The notes under the pieces were generated by a model, which was not told where the DNA came from, did no database searches, and saw only the letters and a program-made list of their open reading frames with translations. Both the position numbers and the translations under genes were made by a program. Below are positions 1 to 50,856 of a stretch of DNA of 64,000 bases, piece by piece; position 1 is the first letter of the stretch, and each line of letters opens with the position of its first letter. Location of the stretch: assembly GCA_951406725.2 (NCBI GenBank), contig OX597837.1, positions 43,648,001 through 43,712,000 of the forward strand, written 5' to 3'. The stretch comes from Octopus vulgaris (lineage: Eukaryota).

Positions 1-102
1 ACCACTATTAGGCAAATCAAACAATGAAAGACTTAAGCCAATACATATGATTAATTTATATTATTTAAATATGTAACAATTATTAAAAAATATAATTAAT
101 AT

Positions 103-165
103 CCACTACGATCGTTTCCTGTCTGCTGTCATCAATTTTTTGAGTCGCAGTCATTCATCAGGTGG
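103..165 (-). ncRNA. Type-I hammerhead ribozyme motif (Penelope-like-element type)
   Basis: Minus strand reads ccac-CUGAUGA-(a ugacugc...gcagaca g)-GAAA-cgaucg-UA-gugg. It has a 4-bp stem I, an intact core, a palindromic stem III (ACGAUCGU) and a GUA cleavage triplet; stem II is imperfect. Confidence 0.7.
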
Positions 166-653
166 TTTCAAAATCTAAAATATAATCAATATTTTTAAGA
201 TATAAATAATATATATAATCTAAAATAATAATTTACTTATAATAAACTCTATTATTAAATATGATTATATCGAAATCGACTATAATGTTAAATATTAACT
301 TTAATTTATAAGGTAGAAAACCCATATTCTAATATCAATATTAGTCTATATCTAATTACATAAATATTTAAAATGACTAATATATATAAATTATCAATGA
401 AAATATATATAAATATTATAATCAAGATCTAAAATAATCTCTATAAACAATTGTATATAATAAAAACCTAATATATTTAATTTTTCATAAACTAACTTAA
501 ACTGACTTTCGAAATCTTATGTAAAATACTTATAGAAATATTCAATTCTTAGTAATATAGTATTAAATAAATACTATAAGTACTATAAACATAATTATGA
601 ATTATATATATATACATACACACACACGCACGCACACACGCGCACACACACAC

Positions 654-723
<70 letters not shown>

Positions 724-1061
724 GTGTGTGCGTGTGTGCATGCGTGTGTGTGTATGTACATATATATATAATTATAATAAGGGCATAGAAAGAAACCAAT
801 GCTGAGAAAAAGGCGCTAAATCGTATCACCACTCAAGAAGTCACAAACACGTGTTGAATTCGAAACAACAAGCCAACGGTAATTACTGTTAAAACAGATA
901 GCCCTGTATCAGCTAACTTCCGGACCTGCCCAATAGTGTTTCTGCCTTCAGCAGGACATACATAGAGAATAAATGAAATATTTATACATACCCACAGGAA
1001 AGCAAAGTTCAAAGCCGCAAATACACGTAAATACCCCAGTTATCTTGGAAAAAATTTCGTA

Positions 1062-1718
1062 GCCGGCATTTCAATTCGAAAATTTTCCAGAAAATTGATC
1101 AATAATTAATAATAATATCAAAGGGTAATCAGAAATATTTGAAATTTCCATTACCAATGGCCTAGCGTGTAAACAGTTTAGTCAATAGACTATATGTTAT
1201 TCATATAAATACAGTGTACATTTAAACACATAAGAGGTATCAGTCATTGGATTCCTTGCACGCTAGAGAGAACAGTTAAATTCCAAACCACTATTAAAGA
1301 TAAAATTTCAGATATTTCTGATTATCCTTTGATATTATTAATTATTGATAAGTTTTCTGGAAAATTTTCGAATTGAAAAGCCGGCATTTTATTTATTGCC
1401 AACAAGGAGCTGCGCTTGCGCGGTGAATTTGAAAAATTACAATGTATAAGCACGAGGCATATACTGGATTGCCTAGTGTATATATATTTAATCTAAGGTG
1501 TACCTGCTGAAGAAAACTTCGCATAGCGAATTATTTTATTCGATAAAAAATATCTGAAACCATTGGTCCAGGAGTTAGATGGTAAATGATTTTATTTTTC
1601 AATCCTTTCGAAATTTTATCCCCAATAGTGGTTTGGAATTTAACTGTCCTCTCTAGCGTGCAAGGAATCATATGATGGATACCTCTTATGTGTTTAAATG
1701 TACATTGTATTTATATGA

Positions 1719-1721
<3 letters not shown>
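1062..1721. repeat. Two interleaved inverted-repeat pairs (A 1062-1147 / A' 1303-1385; B 1198-1295 / B' 1624-1721)
   Basis: Reverse-complement matches read directly, e.g. tcgaaaattttccagaaaa vs ttttctggaaaattttcga, and ttccttgcacgctagagag vs ctctctagcgtgcaaggaa. Confidence 0.9.
1503..1572 (+). ncRNA. Type-I hammerhead ribozyme motif
   Basis: ccug-CUGAAGA-(42-nt stem II region, poorly paired)-GAAA-ccauugg-UC-cagg. It has a 4-bp stem I, a near-palindromic stem III and a GUC triplet. Confidence 0.6.
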
Positions 1722-1786
<65 letters not shown>

Positions 1787-1917
1787 TCCGTATATATTCT
1801 ACCAACAGAATATGTACCATGTTTAAAACAAAATGTACTGGGGCCGATCAGTACGATCCCAAATTTTTAAAGACAGCGCTTCAATATGACTGCTGTCTAA
1901 ACAAGTGTGTGTGTATG

Positions 1918-2011
<94 letters not shown>

Positions 2012-2086
2012 TATGTATGAAATACACACATATATGGGATATACACATATTATCCATCTATGTATTCCTCTCTCTCTCGTTGTATG

Positions 2087-2130
<44 letters not shown>

Positions 2131-2688
2131 CATATGTATATACATAAGTACGTATATGTATATGTATATTAAGGAGCGTGCGCCCTTATGTAAACTTGTG
2201 CATATGGGTCTTGAGTTGTCCTCTTTGTGTTTCTACGTGAACTTTTATAGGCGATGATAATAAACCCATTTCAACTGTCATTCAAAAGTACAAAGAACCA
2301 GTCACGATGACATCGCGAGAATATAAGCTGTTATAACAACAGTCATTTTCAGCCTCATGAATATTCATAAGATATTTTGACTGTCTCCCATTGGTTGATT
2401 TGTTTCTAAAGAAACTTTATAGCAACAGTCACATCCTTGTATTTGCATGTGTCAAAGATATATAGATTTAAAGGTACGTGTGTGTGTGTGTGTAAGTATA
2501 TATATATACATCCAATTGTATATATAAAAAGCCTTTACTTTTTTGATTTACAATGTGCATTTTCACTTATTTTTCTTCATACATTCCCCTTACATTTCCA
2601 CGTGTAGTTTCAATGTTCTTTTTGCAATATATTTATATTATATGATATATATATATATATATATATATATACACTCACACACATACAT

Positions 2689-2845
2689 GACAGATTTCAA
2701 CACAGTTTCCGTCTAACGAATTCACTCATAGGACATTGGCCGGTCGGGAGCAGTAGAAAACCTTACTCGAAGCACTGGACAGTGGAACTGAACCCCAGAC
2801 CACATGGTTACAAAGCAAGCTTCTTATCCACTGTCATACCCTCGC
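2689..2845 (-). mobile_element. SINE family A, degraded 5' part
   Basis: Reverse-complement similarity to the head of the 5663 copy (cagtggaactgaaccc, accacatggtt). Confidence 0.7.
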
Positions 2846-3349
2846 TTTATGCATCAAAAGCCAAAAAAAAAAAGAAAGAAATGTATTTGTCTCCATGACA
2901 AAACACAATGAGTGGCATGTGTATGGGTTCGAACCTGCCACTCACATATTCAAACTAGTAATAACATTGCATTTATACATATCACGGCTTCGTGCTCTCA
3001 CCTCGCAAAAGTATTAATATTGATGTGACTGACAGACAGACAAACAGAAAAAGAGAAAGAAAACTTATGTGAATAAGATCGAGCGCGTACGTGTGTTTGT
3101 ACGTGTGTGTGTGTTCATGTGTGTGCTCCCCTGAATGAATGTATAAAAATATCTCGGAGAAATCGCAATTCTGCTAATGACTGTCCTTTTCCTAATATAG
3201 ATAATTAGAAAAAGTAATTCGAAGTTCTAACCGTACACAGAGACACACACACTATTACACATATAAACACACCTCAGCACAAAACACACACGCACACACA
3301 CTCGTGCACAGACACACCTACATACGCACGCACTGTATCAATCTGCGCT

Positions 3350-3580
3350 GGATATACTTGGAGATAACATCAAATGACATAGATATGTCGATAAAACGGT
3401 CCTTGGAATACTAATTTACAAGGTCACAGCGATCGGTAGTGAATCTGGGGAAAATCTGAAGAAAATGTAAAGACAAGATGCATGGTTTTAATAAGGTCTG
3501 GTATGGAATATTAACGTTATCCAATATATTGACTAATGGACGAATTTAACGTATTTTTTCGGTGTATTTAGGAATGTGAA
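3350..3580 (+). pseudogene. Decayed RTE-like reverse transcriptase fragment
   Basis: Translates with stops and frameshifts to GDNIK*HRYVDKTVL ... NVKTRCMV ... VYLG, resembling RTE GxNINNLRYADDTVL / KTKxMV / YLG. Confidence 0.5.
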
Positions 3581-3681
3581 AATCTAGAAGATAAATCGTT
3601 ACAAACGTAGATAGACAGACAAGAGACAGATGCAGAGACTGATTGGAAAATGGATGGATAATAGACAACAATCTATACAGC

Positions 3682-3760
<79 letters not shown>

Positions 3761-3807
3761 CACCTATATACCTATATGAATGCTTGTATGTATGTATGTA
3801 TATATAT

Positions 3808-3980
3808 ATAGTTAATCCAAACACGAACAAAGAGAAAACACAACAACACGAGGACGTGGAACAAGTATAGTGTTATTGAAGGCTCAGGAAAGGAAAGAAA
3901 GAAGGAGGATTTAACGTTTCGAGCGGAGCTCTTCATCAGAAATATAGAAAAAAGGAAAGGTCCAAGGAAGGGAAGACGGT
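3808..3980 (-). mobile_element. Short (TA)n-flanked repeat carrying a minimal hammerhead (putative non-autonomous Penelope-like element)
   Basis: Homologous by eye to 42950-43125 (opposite strand) and related to 5370-5565; contains the hammerhead at 3909-3943. Confidence 0.6.
3909..3943 (-). ncRNA. Minimal type-I hammerhead ribozyme motif
   Basis: auuu-CUGAUGA-A-gagc-ucc-gcuc-GAAA-cg-UU-aaau. Stems I and II are perfect, there is an extra A after A9, and stem III is the palindrome AACGUU. Confidence 0.8.
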
Positions 3981-4657
3981 TTGTATTTATATATATATAA
4001 TTAGAGAGAGGAAGTAAGGGAGAGAGAATGAGAGGAGAGGGAGAGTATTTTTTATGAAAGCTGAGCAGGGCGTTTATCTGAAGACTCAGGTTTCGCGCCA
4101 TATACATCCGTATTACAGGTGGAGTAGGTAAATATACATTTATGCTGCTGAACCCACATTGGTCATCTACGACAGATGAAGGGACCACAGTTTCTTGATG
4201 GAGGACATGCACCAACGTCTTGTTTAATTTAATAAAATGTTTCTGGTGTACATTAGCTTACTCCTTCCATCCTATCGACATTGCCTCAACAGGTGCACGG
4301 TATGCTACATATCAGATATCGAAACGAAGTGTTTTGCTGAAGGACAAAACGCCTCAACCGCTCCGAGAAACGAAACAAAGATCTTTCGAGCAACACCCGA
4401 ACAACTATGTCACGTGCTCTCACTGGCTACCTACCTCTCTCACTATCTCACTATATATATATATATATAATCAAAATAAGCAACAAGTACATTCAAGGTA
4501 GAGTAGTACAATGGTTTTCTGCTACTTCATTTTAATAAAATGAAGTGCTTATTATGATTATAATCACCCCATTTGATTTATATGGATAAAACCATACAAC
4601 ATTCTGGTGCCTTTAACTTAAGTACCACATTCATCTGAATCGAAATTTTGCTAAACT

Positions 4658-4706
<49 letters not shown>

Positions 4707-4715
4707 ATATATCTA

Positions 4716-4775
<60 letters not shown>

Positions 4776-4855
4776 TACATTCACATAGGTACGCACACAC
4801 ACATATATATATTTAGAGAGAGGGGAGAGAAAGCGGGATGGCTCGATAGACAGAA

Positions 4856-4892
<37 letters not shown>

Positions 4893-5467
4893 CATATATG
4901 TGTGTGTATGTGTATGAGAAACAGAGCAGCACTTACACACATCCGCGCGCGCATACACACACACACGCCATACATTTCAATATATTTGCCCTGCATCCTA
5001 TGTATACAGGTTCTTTGTCTTGAAATTTCTCGTCAACAAATCCTTCCTGCATGAATTCCTAACGTTTACATCGTTTCCATAAAGCAACAGAAACCATTTC
5101 AAACACATATCCTTATAAACAACACATACACAACCTTACATCGCAACCCTCATAGTATTTTTGTTTTTTGTTTTTTTGCTTTTCTGCACACTTTTAATTT
5201 AATTCTCAATCTGATTATATTCACGCGTGCATGCACGCTTTTACGTATACGAAATTAAAAAGACAAAAGAAAATGAAATTATGTTACGACCATCATTACC
5301 TTCTATGCTGTTTCTGTTGTGATCACCCTATAACTTCATAGGAACTTCAGTCATGAAGTGTTATATATATAGGGAGAATTCGCAAAATTCGAAAAAACAA
5401 AAGACGAAGACAGGTAGTTTAGACAACAAACAGATGTATTAGTATAACGCTCGGGAAGTGAAAAAGT

Positions 5468-5503
5468 CTTTAACGTTTCGAGCCTACGCTCTTCCACAGA
5501 AAG
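5468..5503 (-). ncRNA. Minimal hammerhead variant with CUGUGGA core, inside a short repeat (5370-5565)
   Basis: cuuu-CUGUGGA-A-gagc-guag-gcuc-GAAA-cg-UU-aaag. Same architecture as 3909-3943, with a compensatory change in stem I. Confidence 0.65.
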
Positions 5504-5662
5504 GAACACAGAAAGAAACAAGGAGAGAAAATAGAGAATGTGCAGTGGCTAGTGATCTATCATAGATATACATAATAGAAATATGCTTTAAAAAGAAAAT
5601 AGAAACTACACGTGGAAAAGATATGGGGAAAGTAAGAAGAAAAAGTGAAAATTCACATAATA

Positions 5663-5827
5663 GGCGCAGGAGTGGCGGTGTGGTAAGTAGCTTGCTAACC
5701 AACCACATGGTTCCGGGTTCAGTCCCACTGCATGGCATCTTGGGAAAGTGTCTTCTGCTATAGCCCCGGGCCGACCAAAGCCTTGTGAGTGGATTTGATA
5801 GACGGAAACTGAAAGAAACCTGTCGTA

Positions 5828-5872
<45 letters not shown>

Positions 5873-6083
5873 TTGTGTGTCTGTGTTTGTCCCCCTAGCA
5901 TTGCTTGACAACCGATGCTGGTGTGTTTACGTCCCCGTCACTTAGCGGTTCGGCAAAAGAGACCGATAGAATAAGTACTGTGCTTACAAAGAATAAGTCC
6001 CGGGGTCGATTTGCTCGACTAAAGGTGGTGCTGCAGCATGGCCACAGTCAAATGACTGAAACAAGTAAAAGAGTAAAAGAGTA
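5663..6083 (+). mobile_element. SINE family A, full length (tRNA-like head, internal TA/TG microsatellite, GTAAAAGA tail)
   Basis: A-box-like gtggcggtgtggt and B-box-like ggttcagtccc; near-identical to the copies at 11676, 20339 and 45035. Confidence 0.9.
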
Positions 6084-17726: not shown

Positions 17727-17810
<84 letters not shown>

Positions 17811-17853
17811 GAAAGAATGGAGTCGAACGAAGATGTTAACAAAATTCCTTTAA

Positions 17854-17934
17854 TGTTGACATATGTTTCGAAGACAGCATATTTTTATTCCGAAGGAATG
17901 ATGAGAACATTATGCAATCTTCTCATCGGGAAAG
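17854..17934 (-). ncRNA. Type-I hammerhead motif with long stem II and decayed stem I
   Basis: CCGAUGA-gaaga-uu-gcaua...uaugc-ug-ucuuc-GAAA-cauaug-UC. Palindromic stem III (ACAUAUGU), GUC triplet, U4C core change. Confidence 0.6.
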
Positions 17935-18884
17935 ATAAGGAGCCTCTCTCAACCCCAAGACGAATAAAAATTTCGATGATTGCCTACATATATATATGTA
18001 TATGCACATATATATCTCTACACATATATAGAGAGAGACAGACAGACAGACGTTATGAATTTGCACTCGGCGGAATTTGAACTCAGAGAGTAATGGTGGA
18101 CAAAATGCCGCTGAGATCGATTCTGCCAGCATGCCGACCTTACTTGGCAAGATATTTAAATTATGCATGTGGTGTGTGTGCGTGTGAATGTGTGTGAAGG
18201 TGTGTGTATGAATGTGTGCATGTGAGTGAGTGTGTGTGTGTGTGTGTATGTATGTGTGTGCATGACCTGTAATTTTAATAAGTTTTCGATTTAGACCTTT
18301 AGTGATATTCCATATAAAGCAACTTCATCGATTTCACGAGTTGAAAGCAATCAAAGCAAACTAAGTTCTGTTTTCTCGTTAAAGGTACATAACCCTTGAT
18401 GTTTATAATTTCATGGCAAAACTAAATACGTTCCTAAACCTCATACATGTAAACTTATCGTATATTCCCACATACTACATAAATATATCGGACTTCTATG
18501 TATTAATTAATGGTAGTATGATATTTGCTGTCAGAGAAGAAAATTCGCTGTCAAAACATATTTCGTTGTACCTGCATTAGAATATACTTGAAATATATAG
18601 AGATATAGCAACATAGAAAACAGTTAGTCCCGGCACGATTTTTTTCTCTCTTATTTTTGTTTAGAATAACTGAGCAGCCAAATAATTAGCTGCCGAGTAC
18701 TTAATGAAACCGTGATGTCGCAGCCCGAGGCTCATCACAGTTGAGCAGTTCACAACTTGACTAGATATATATAAAGTTGTTATTTCCAATCACAAAACTA
18801 TAGAATAATGTGCAAATTCCAAACCGTTTCATAGAAACTGATGTCACTTTGAAATTATTGGAAGAACAGAAGGTGGAGTAGCAG

Positions 18885-21273: not shown

Positions 21274-22037
21274 CTCGGCGGAATTTGAACTTAGAACGAA
21301 GCAACTAGAGAAATACCTATTTCTTTACTACCCACAAGGGGCTAAACACAGAGGGGACAAACAAGGACAGACATAGGTATTAAATCGATTACATAGACCC
21401 CAGTGCGTAACTGGTACTTAATTTATCGACCCCGAAAGGATGAAAGGTAAAGTCGACCTCGGCGGAATTTGAACTCAGAACGTAACGGCAGACGAATTAC
21501 CGCTAAGCATTTCACCCGGCGTGCTAACGTTTCTGCCAGCTCGCCGCCTTTCTAGCGAAATACCTATTTCTTTATTACCCACAAGGGGCTAAACACAGAT
21601 GGGACAAACAAGGACAGACTTAGGTATTAAGTCGATTACATCGATCCCAGTGTGTAACTGGTACTTAATTTATCGACCCAGAAAGGATGAAAGGCAAAGT
21701 CGACCTCGGCGGAATTTGAACTCACAGCGTAACGACAGACGAAATAACTATTTCTTTATTACCCACACTGGGCTAAACACAGAGGGGACAAACAAGGACA
21801 GACAAACGGATTAAATCGATTACATAGACCCCAGGTGCGTAACTGGTACTTAATTTATCGACCCCGAAAGGATGAAAGGTAAAGTCGACCTCGGCAGAAT
21901 TTGAACTCAGAACGTAACGGTAGACGAAATACGGCTACGCATTTCGCCCGGCGTGCTAACGTTTCTGCCAGCTCGCCGCCTAAAATACCGCTTAGCATTT
22001 CGTCCAGCTTGCCAACGACTCTGCCACCTCGCTGCCT
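21274..22037 (-). mobile_element. Nested/tandem cluster of SINE family B (MetaSINE-like)
   Basis: Three copies of the block gtcgactttgcctttcatcctttcggggtcgataaattaagtaccag (Meta-domain-like), lying inside a split older copy. Confidence 0.9.
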
Positions 22038-22253
22038 GAAATCGTGAACTTATGGAAGAACATAAATAAATTGTCTTAGAGTGCAAACGTGCTTCTAAAC
22101 GTCATTTTTATAGATATATATCTGTCAACATTTATATTTATTTATTTATCCATCGATCTGGCAATCTCCCAATCAGTCCATCACCCAGTCAGTTAATTAA
22201 TGTGTGTATGTGCATTTGAGTGTATGTATACCTAGATGTATGATCAATATATA

Positions 22254-42997: not shown

Positions 42998-43030
42998 TTT
43001 CCGACAAAGAGCCATGCCCGAAACGTTAAA
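42998..43030 (+). ncRNA. Degenerate minimal hammerhead relic
   Basis: uuu-CCGACAA-A-gagc-cau-gccc-GAAA-cg-UU-aaa, within a homolog of the 3808-3980 repeat. Confidence 0.5.
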
Positions 43031-49782: not shown

Positions 49783-50638
<856 letters not shown>

Positions 50639-50856
50639 GGCGACAGCTTGGCCGAATATTTAGCAGACCAGACAAAATGCTTAGCGGAATATTTCCGGTT
50701 TTACCTTCTGAGCTAAATATCCGCCCAGGTCCACTTGGTATTTTATCCTTTCGGAGTGGAGGAAAGATTCAATAAAATAAAATACCATTTGAACATTGGG
50801 GTGGACTAGGCCCCCCTCCCCACAATATTTCAAACCTTGTGCGCATTGCAGAAGGA
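50639..50856 (+). mobile_element. SINE family B, diverged
   Basis: Degenerate head and Meta-like block. Confidence 0.65.

Follow-up and report, generated by a model that had tools for sequence, protein, structure and literature searches.

Hammerhead ribozyme motifs in a stretch of Octopus vulgaris DNA and their probable origin in the ends of Penelope-like elements

A window of 64,000 nucleotides (nt) of Octopus vulgaris DNA (assembly GCA_951406725.2, contig OX597837.1, positions 43,648,001 to 43,712,000), a microsatellite-rich stretch of a 2.8-Gb genome, carries a cluster of type-I hammerhead ribozyme motifs near its start. The motifs are most probably hammerheads in the 3' end repeats of several families of Penelope-like elements (PLEs), present as truncated copies at TA-rich microsatellites and predicted to cut slowly as dimers; we put the probability of this reading at about 0.8. 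One very abundant lineage among them has an altered core, A6U, that is fixed.

Hammerhead motifs in the window

Type-I motifs were sought with a descriptor demanding a stem I of at least 4 Watson-Crick base pairs, the words CUGANGA and GAAA, a palindromic stem III and UH, and tolerating a bulged nucleotide after A9. With an exact core, the matches in the window were exactly 103-165(-), 1503-1572(+) and 3909-3943(-), and 5468-5503(-) joined the set once one core mismatch was tolerated. These are the four hammerheads that a sequence-only reading of the window had named, and the stem III palindromes that it gave, ACGAUCGU, ACCAUUGGU, AACGUU and ACAUAUGU, are as described. Shuffled sequences yielded means of 0.00 (60 dinucleotide shuffles) and 0.03 (60 4-mer shuffles) matches with the exact core and of 0.15 and 0.30 with one mismatch; the observed count was equalled by 0 of 60 shuffles in each set at both settings. 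The predicted excess over dinucleotide-shuffled sequence is found at these settings and lost at looser ones: with a stem I of at least 3 pairs and one mismatch the result is weaker (3 of 60 4-mer shuffles attain the observed count), and with two mismatches 10-26 of 60 shuffles attain it and significance is gone.

The CUGANGA, GAAA and UH elements of the type-I topology are exact in families A, B and C, listed below. The closing pair G10.1-C11.1 of stem II is present in B and B2 (GAGC/GCUC), with other pairs in A and C. An extra nucleotide that separates position 9 from 10.1 and a palindromic 15.2-16.2 are present, as in the minimal hammerhead ribozymes (min-HHRs) of PLEs. A stricter descriptor, in which stem II started directly after A9, recovered none of the four motifs; thus, the bulged nucleotide must be permitted. 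Rfam gave no hammerhead match in the window at the gathering threshold and none over 3800-4050 at E<=10, and in E-value mode only microsatellite and miRNA noise appeared among the 150 of 692 matches listed. General repeat finding in the window was dominated by microsatellites. In agreement with the sequence-only reading, which saw no open reading frame (ORF) for a PLE reverse transcriptase (RT) or GIY-YIG domain, tblastn with two PLE proteins found no PLE ORF in the window.

A fifth motif, decayed and absent from the earlier list, lies inside the cluster. Two extra copies that had been listed, at 17854(-) and 42998(+), are present and decayed, not intact; the former has the core CCGAUGA and has lost the 3' strand of stem I. 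The features are as follows (numbers of candidates given for the families, here and below, are lower bounds; UTR, untranslated region; pLTR, pseudo-long terminal repeat):

1-600, minus strand: family A, 5'-truncated 3' end (3' UTR and pLTR) of a putative Hydra-type PLE; 91% identity to locus L121
103-165, minus strand: hammerhead A; stem I CCAC/GUGG, core CUGAUGA, palindrome ACGAUCGU, predicted cut after GUA (between 107 and 106)
782-1075, minus strand: family E, cut-down copy of another hammerhead-bearing repeat; at least 130 candidates, 72-84% identity
903-955, minus strand: decayed hammerhead E (A9G, A15.1G); 82% identity to intact relatives
1061-1309, minus strand: inverted 5' piece of a family C insertion (monomer positions 42-313)
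1303-1730, plus strand: direct copy of family C, a circularly permuted non-coding monomer of ~470-495 nt
1503-1572, plus strand: hammerhead C; stem I CCUG/CAGG, core CUGAAGA, stem III ACCA-U-UGGU, predicted cut after GUC (between 1568 and 1569)
3807-3978, minus strand: family B, short 3' end from an older group of PLEs that is likely Neptune-like, stopping at (TA)n; at least 3,086 candidates
3909-3943, minus strand: hammerhead B; stem I AUUU/AAAU, core CUGAUGA, extra A, stem II GAGC/GCUC, palindrome AACGUU
5372-5560, minus strand: family B2, 5'-truncated 3' end of a putative Neptune-type PLE; at least 1,622 candidates
5468-5503, minus strand: hammerhead B2 with A6U core (CUGUNGA); stem I CUUU/AAAG, stem II GAGC/GCUC, palindrome AACGUU
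17810-17985, minus strand: family D, 3' end of another putative Hydra-type PLE; decayed hammerhead at about 17853-17933
42998-43030, plus strand: old hammerhead, now decayed, from the B-like AACGUU lineage, with CCGACAA as its core, seen directly in the sequence

Parent elements of the families

Family A (at least 1,396 first-look candidates) shows nested 5' truncations; at its 3' end it stops at (TA)n immediately beyond the left edge of the window. Window positions 1-600 match DNA at L121 that lies, on the same strand, ~2 kb downstream of a frame of 484 amino acids (aa) for RT and endonuclease (EN), and L122 is 90% identical; the frame in L121 is a broken ORF. These matches downstream of RT/EN frames identify family A as the truncated end of a Hydra-type element. 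A search with an endonuclease fragment from a flank gave 5,351 candidates, many with open frames of 820-860 aa. Full-length Hydra-type copies at L125, L137, L138 and L139 are flanked by hammerheads at both sides, frequently with a truncated copy in inverted orientation upstream; the units measure 2,979 nt in L137 and 6,838 nt in L125, and insertion is at (TA)n. The proteins P0001 and P0002 contain DKT, a CxCX5C linker, a C-terminal EN and CxxC/CxH around the EN end, have no CCHH (all by eye), and the Hydra-type motif reads RIKWK at the place of RWK. Family D has at least 1,554 candidates, most relatives having CUGAUGA, and two of its 25 loci (L273, L277) extend into an EN 38-40% identical to P0001. 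The parent of A and D is placed in the Hydra clade by these motifs rather than by a tree. Among related Hydra-type elements (L125, L128 and L133 against L137), 3' UTRs range from ~0.2 kb to ~4 kb with internal AT-rich duplications, and in Hydra-type elements the 3' end falls at one of two places, about +105 or about +211 nt from the cut.

The parent of B2, likewise assigned by motifs and not by a tree, appears to be a Neptune-type PLE. A query with P0003 gave 24,043 candidates, of which the 119 scored were 94-96% identical; among the best 30 EN loci, a B2-type hammerhead lies downstream in 27 and B2-like DNA in 29. In the window's own B2 subfamily, 2 of 25 loci (L251, L236) extend into an EN 68-77% identical to P0003, and in a sister subfamily (L358, L360, L361) full-length open frames are flanked by two B2-type hammerheads. 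Full-length Neptune-type copies match Pfam RVT_1 above the cut-off (E~1e-7) and GIY-YIG weakly, below it. P0004 contains DKG, a C-X4-C-X2-C linker and, at its C-terminus, a GIY-YIG with CxxC and two His, in agreement with the CX2-5CxxC linker and the CCHH of Neptune-clade PLEs. For B, several long copies have a common CA-rich UTR of ~1 kb, and one extends to a 37-aa C-terminal piece of an EN (57% identity); its parent is likely a Neptune-like PLE, by a weaker link than that of B2. Upstream DNA of L024, used as a probe for this parent, gave matches mostly without B downstream and was uninformative. Both B and B2 have favoured 5' boundaries, which may be AT-rich words able to pair with the microsatellite.

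Family membership and the link to RT and GIY-YIG frames thus bear out the proposal of PLE-type minimal hammerheads in several distinct families. Compared with PLE pLTRs, as had been suggested, the host repeats agree for the A-related and B2 lineages, partially for B and D, and no such match was found for C and E.

Family C (at least 1,398 candidates) is different. All 30 loci, 29 of them distinct, map within a 495-nt cut-to-cut unit taken from L040; every central copy crosses the cut site, and 5 of the 29 distinct loci contain the whole unit between two cut sites. The 3' ends form two clusters at TA-rich positions. The copy in the window crosses the cut site and stops at (GATA)n; its stem II is decayed, typical copies having AGACUU/AAGUCU. 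A PLE protein match was absent in all 30 loci. Family C looks like a non-autonomous, retrozyme-like unit with PLE-style insertions and is the sole family that fits this description. Its helper is likely a Hydra-type enzyme, since its stem III resembles that listed for Hydra-1_oBim. The segment 782-1075, considered as the parent body of C, was rejected; it belongs to a separate hammerhead family, E, whose relatives are intact (CCUG-CUGANGA...GAAA-UUAGCUAA-UH-CAGG). At 782-1309 the truncated E copy directly adjoins the inverted C piece, both with CCUG/CAGG as stem I; the junction may stem from a single insertion in which the template changed from one RNA to another, or from insertions of which one is nested in the other.

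Density of the motifs in the genome

Sixty 10-kb stretches at round coordinates contained 12 exact-core motifs; the same stretches contained 0 in each of five dinucleotide-shuffled sets and 0-1 in five 4-mer-shuffled sets. The genome-wide estimate is some 56,000 motifs with the exact core (29,000-98,000 as a rough Poisson range, by hand), and the suspicion of the sequence-only reading that the genome holds very many is confirmed. Counting by homology gives 34 per 600 kb, or about 160,000 genome-wide, after 86 matches were reduced to 34 by removing 46 of an AAT-microsatellite pseudo-family and 6 doubtful palindromic ones. When the palindrome was not demanded, it was present in 12 of 16 matches, compared with 5% in shuffles. 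Stem I and the palindrome vary among no fewer than 12 families, yet the strands remain complementary. A near-perfect palindromic repeat at L030:191-290, L205 and L226 has a hammerhead-like match with CUGACAA on both strands; it is doubtful and was left out of the counts.

The A6U core of the B2 lineage

The CUGUGGA core had been listed for one motif. The sequence was given correctly, and on the sequence evidence it is a lineage-fixed variant, neither decay nor a one-off. Exact patterns found 15,730 U6 and 180 A6 copies genome-wide (~99% U6), with 0 for reversed controls. Among B2-lineage copies gathered by stem II only, U6 occurs in 73 of 74 and A6 in none; C3, U4, G5, G8 and A9 are conserved in 71-73 of 74, N7 takes all four letters, and H17 alternates between U and A. 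In the sister lineage B, A6 occurs in 66 of 67 copies and U4C in 13 of 67. Thus, lineage B2 departs from the canonical A6 of PLE min-HHRs. U6 is present in both end repeats of open-frame full-length elements. In contigs of four runs with four organism labels, every letter but U stays below 5% at position 6; N7 is variable in three of these runs, and the fourth is thinly covered. The A6 copies listed are distributed over all N7 states, as may be expected of later point mutation. The A6U core was not found in the hammerhead literature searched; Lunse et al. 2017, on PLE hammerhead variants and outside that search, may list it.

Cores with U4C (CCGANGA) are a recurring subfamily trait in B and two other families (L041:583, L090:968, L225:8528, L110:2428, L302:1382). 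Exact A6U motifs are denser near a chromosome end (C1:1.4-4.9 Mb), with at least about 48 in 3.5 Mb among the matches listed; the genome mean is 1 per ~180 kb, and the window is likewise distal, on C24.

Insertion anatomy, folding and a possible mechanism

The distance from the cut to the 3' end is fixed in each family: ~127 nt in A, 102 in B, ~95 in B2, ~56 or ~213 in D, and ~145 or ~240 in C. The 3' ends abut TA-type repeats, and the microsatellite insertion context noticed in the window was therefore borne out; 5' ends are variable and inverted 5' pieces are common. Such variable 5' ends, fixed 3' ends and inverted 5' pieces are the insertion anatomy of PLEs (PMC8557442). By nearest-neighbour energies, the active dimer of A has -28.2 kcal/mol, compared with -28.4 for the minimum-free-energy cofold and -22.0 for two monomers, and the palindrome-paired dimer is at or near the optimum for Hydra-type motifs. 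In B and B2, stem III is impossible in the monomer.

These elements may insert by the following route. The GIY-YIG endonuclease would nick (TA)n, and the RT would prime at a site rich in TA that lies ~55-250 nt downstream of the hammerhead, copy back across the cut and usually halt early. Because priming would be downstream and copying would cross the cut, the template would be either a multimer left uncut or a circle made by cutting and religation. A pair of hammerheads, in tandem pLTRs or in two RNAs, would join through the palindrome and so form stem III. Family C would use the PLE machinery in trans as a non-coding unit of ~495 nt, and the A6U lineage would cut weakly yet retain the rest of the fold.

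Several points weigh against the reading of the motifs as cutting hammerheads of PLE ends. The lowest-energy fold is not the active dimer for B, B2 or C. Changes at A6 reportedly lower hammerhead activity (PMC3088659). The parent of B is deduced from the single 37-aa piece, and none turned up for C or E. Finally, none of 27 long A6U-lineage copies begins at the cut site: 12 continue across an upstream hammerhead, 1 begins 10 nt before the cut, and for 14 the start is internal to the unit (mapped for 8, and past the stretch fetched for 6). The lack of starts at the cut argues against a linear cleaved template. The pattern fits a circular template, as proposed by Cervera and de la Pena (PMC4209133), or little cleavage alike, and DNA cannot separate the two.

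Alternative explanations

It is possible, though we hold it tentatively and at somewhat less than even odds, that the A6U lineage has a working natural slow-cutting hammerhead, tuned to leave part of the RNA uncut or religated as a circle from which the RT makes copies longer than one unit, and that it has retained both stems, the palindrome and all the remaining core bases in several subfamilies and several species. A competing explanation accepts the PLE ends and holds that the elements, or at least those of the A6U lineage, can do without cutting or have lost it, the motif being a vestige or a structural or dimerisation signal. It draws on the fixation of A6U in a very successful lineage, on the U4C copies of B, on an RT that reads across a cut at which no copy begins, and on the good proliferation of the hammerhead-less Naiads (Craig et al., PMC8557442). 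We nevertheless regard it as doubtful, because the other core positions of the A6U lineage are held while the free N7 varies and H17 is U or A, stem I covaries between sister lineages, and a circular template would yield read-through too. The proposal of the sequence-only reading, short non-autonomous retrozyme-like elements, is improbable as an account of all families, even though most copies are short, certain 5' boundaries are favoured in B and B2, C is a genuine permuted monomer and B may contain a short non-autonomous subfamily. Long A, B2 and D copies and one B copy enter PLE coding sequence on the same strand, and the favoured boundaries may only reflect AT-rich words pairing with the microsatellite. 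For A and B2, which are truncated autonomous PLEs, RT-EN linkage refutes the proposal; long B and D copies reach the endonuclease, and it stands for family C only.

Two further explanations concern the cluster itself. Under uniform scatter, five motifs in 5.4 kb have p 0.001-0.003 per 64-kb window, which might suggest a selected, host-functional array such as an RNA-processing locus, but 38-146 such windows are expected genome-wide, and one random 10-kb stretch contained three intact motifs. The motifs also occupy both strands, come from five families that are unrelated and include two decayed copies, and a host array is accordingly very improbable. The window has 13.5 runs of (TA)5+ per 5.5 kb, compared with 6.6 in the sample. 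Thus, the cluster reflects the high genome-wide density and the doubled supply of (TA)n targets in the window, and it needs no special explanation. Chance matches in low-complexity DNA are scarcely credible. Descriptors with two mismatches do yield them, and one library family was the AAT-microsatellite artefact, but they would not account for the 0 of 60 shuffles, the thousands of family copies, the covariation and the position at PLE ends; the window shuffles, the 60-stretch sample and the palindrome frequency refute this explanation.

Other features

Common dispersed repeats resembling short interspersed elements occur at 5655-6000, 21500-22040 and elsewhere in the window, and one such family has GAAACGTTAGC without an upstream hammerhead core. 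At 49809-50768 (-), broken frames among (TAA)n repeats have no Pfam match; they resemble what we take to be the endonuclease end of an R4/Dong-type element that lacks long terminal repeats (a non-LTR element). The flank at L009:2097-2894 contains a Mariner-like transposase frame (Transposase_1, E=3e-24).

Comparison with known systems and significance

The octopus motifs share with the PLE min-HHRs of Cervera and de la Pena (2014, PMC4209133) the CUGANGA core with its extra nucleotide, the short stem I and the palindromic 15.2-16.2, as well as the occurrence of many families per genome, mostly as solo truncated copies, with a few flanking RT-EN ORFs. In contrast, the U6 of B2 occurs in none of the alignment rows in part of their supplementary file 2. 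No cephalopod appears in the portion of that work searched ('octopus', 0 matches), supplementary file 1 lying outside that search.

The Hydra-type elements share with Hydra-clade PLEs, including Hydra-1_Obim (Craig et al. 2021, PMC8557442), DKT, the CxCX5C linker, CxxC/CxH around the EN E/N residues, (TA)n targeting and a 3' hammerhead with a 4-bp palindromic stem III. Stem III is acca-a-tggt in Hydra-1_oBim and ACCA-U-UGGU in family C. However, the families found here differ from Hydra-1_Obim in hammerheads and flanks; their Hydra-type units are 2,979-6,838 nt with long AT-rich UTRs, whereas the clade was described as '<3 kb', and they have clear pLTRs, whereas Hydra-1_Obim was given 'no pLTR' (PMC8557442). 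With Neptune1_Ap of the same paper, the B2 parent shares DKG, the C-X4-C-X2-C linker and the C-terminal GIY-YIG with CxxC and two His; the RT segments are alike by eye, no alignment having been computed, and the core of the B2 parent is A6U.

Family C, a non-coding, head-to-tail, hammerhead-bounded monomer, resembles the non-LTR retrozymes (Cervera and de la Pena 2020, PMC7229834) and the non-autonomous PLE MRC1 of Chlamys (PMC8557442). Its monomer of ~470-495 nt exceeds the 150-450 bp of non-LTR retrozymes, its runs reach ~2 units in place of long arrays, and it has a PLE-type hammerhead and PLE-style inverted 5' pieces. The core position altered in B2 is also altered, to A6C, in the hammerhead of phage Bcep176, which is slow (kobs < 0.1 per min; Perreault et al. 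2011, PMC3088659), and U4C is natural in a viroid (PMC3088659). Here, however, the letter is U, the motif is of the minimal dimer type, and it is fixed in >15,000 genomic copies.

PLE min-HHRs are already known to occur by the thousand per genome, in many families and mostly solo (PMC4209133), and an octopus Hydra PLE with a hammerhead has likewise been described (PMC8557442 supplement). An annotation of octopus repeats from 2026 reports 31 recently active Penelope-like families, and 'hammerhead' and 'ribozyme' are absent from its main text (PMC13282606). The single unusual point here is the A6U core of a very abundant lineage, which may cut weakly. Searches that demand CUGANGA overlook at least 15,000 motifs in this genome.

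The role of PLE hammerheads was described as 'still unclear' (PMC8557442). Open-frame, full-length elements with A6U in both end repeats stand beside sister lineages with canonical cores, and the rate of cleavage could be compared directly with retrotransposition. If the A6U core is a working slow variant, the sister cores with A6, U6 and C4, together with the 495-nt non-autonomous unit, would form a natural series on cleavage in the retrotransposition of PLEs.

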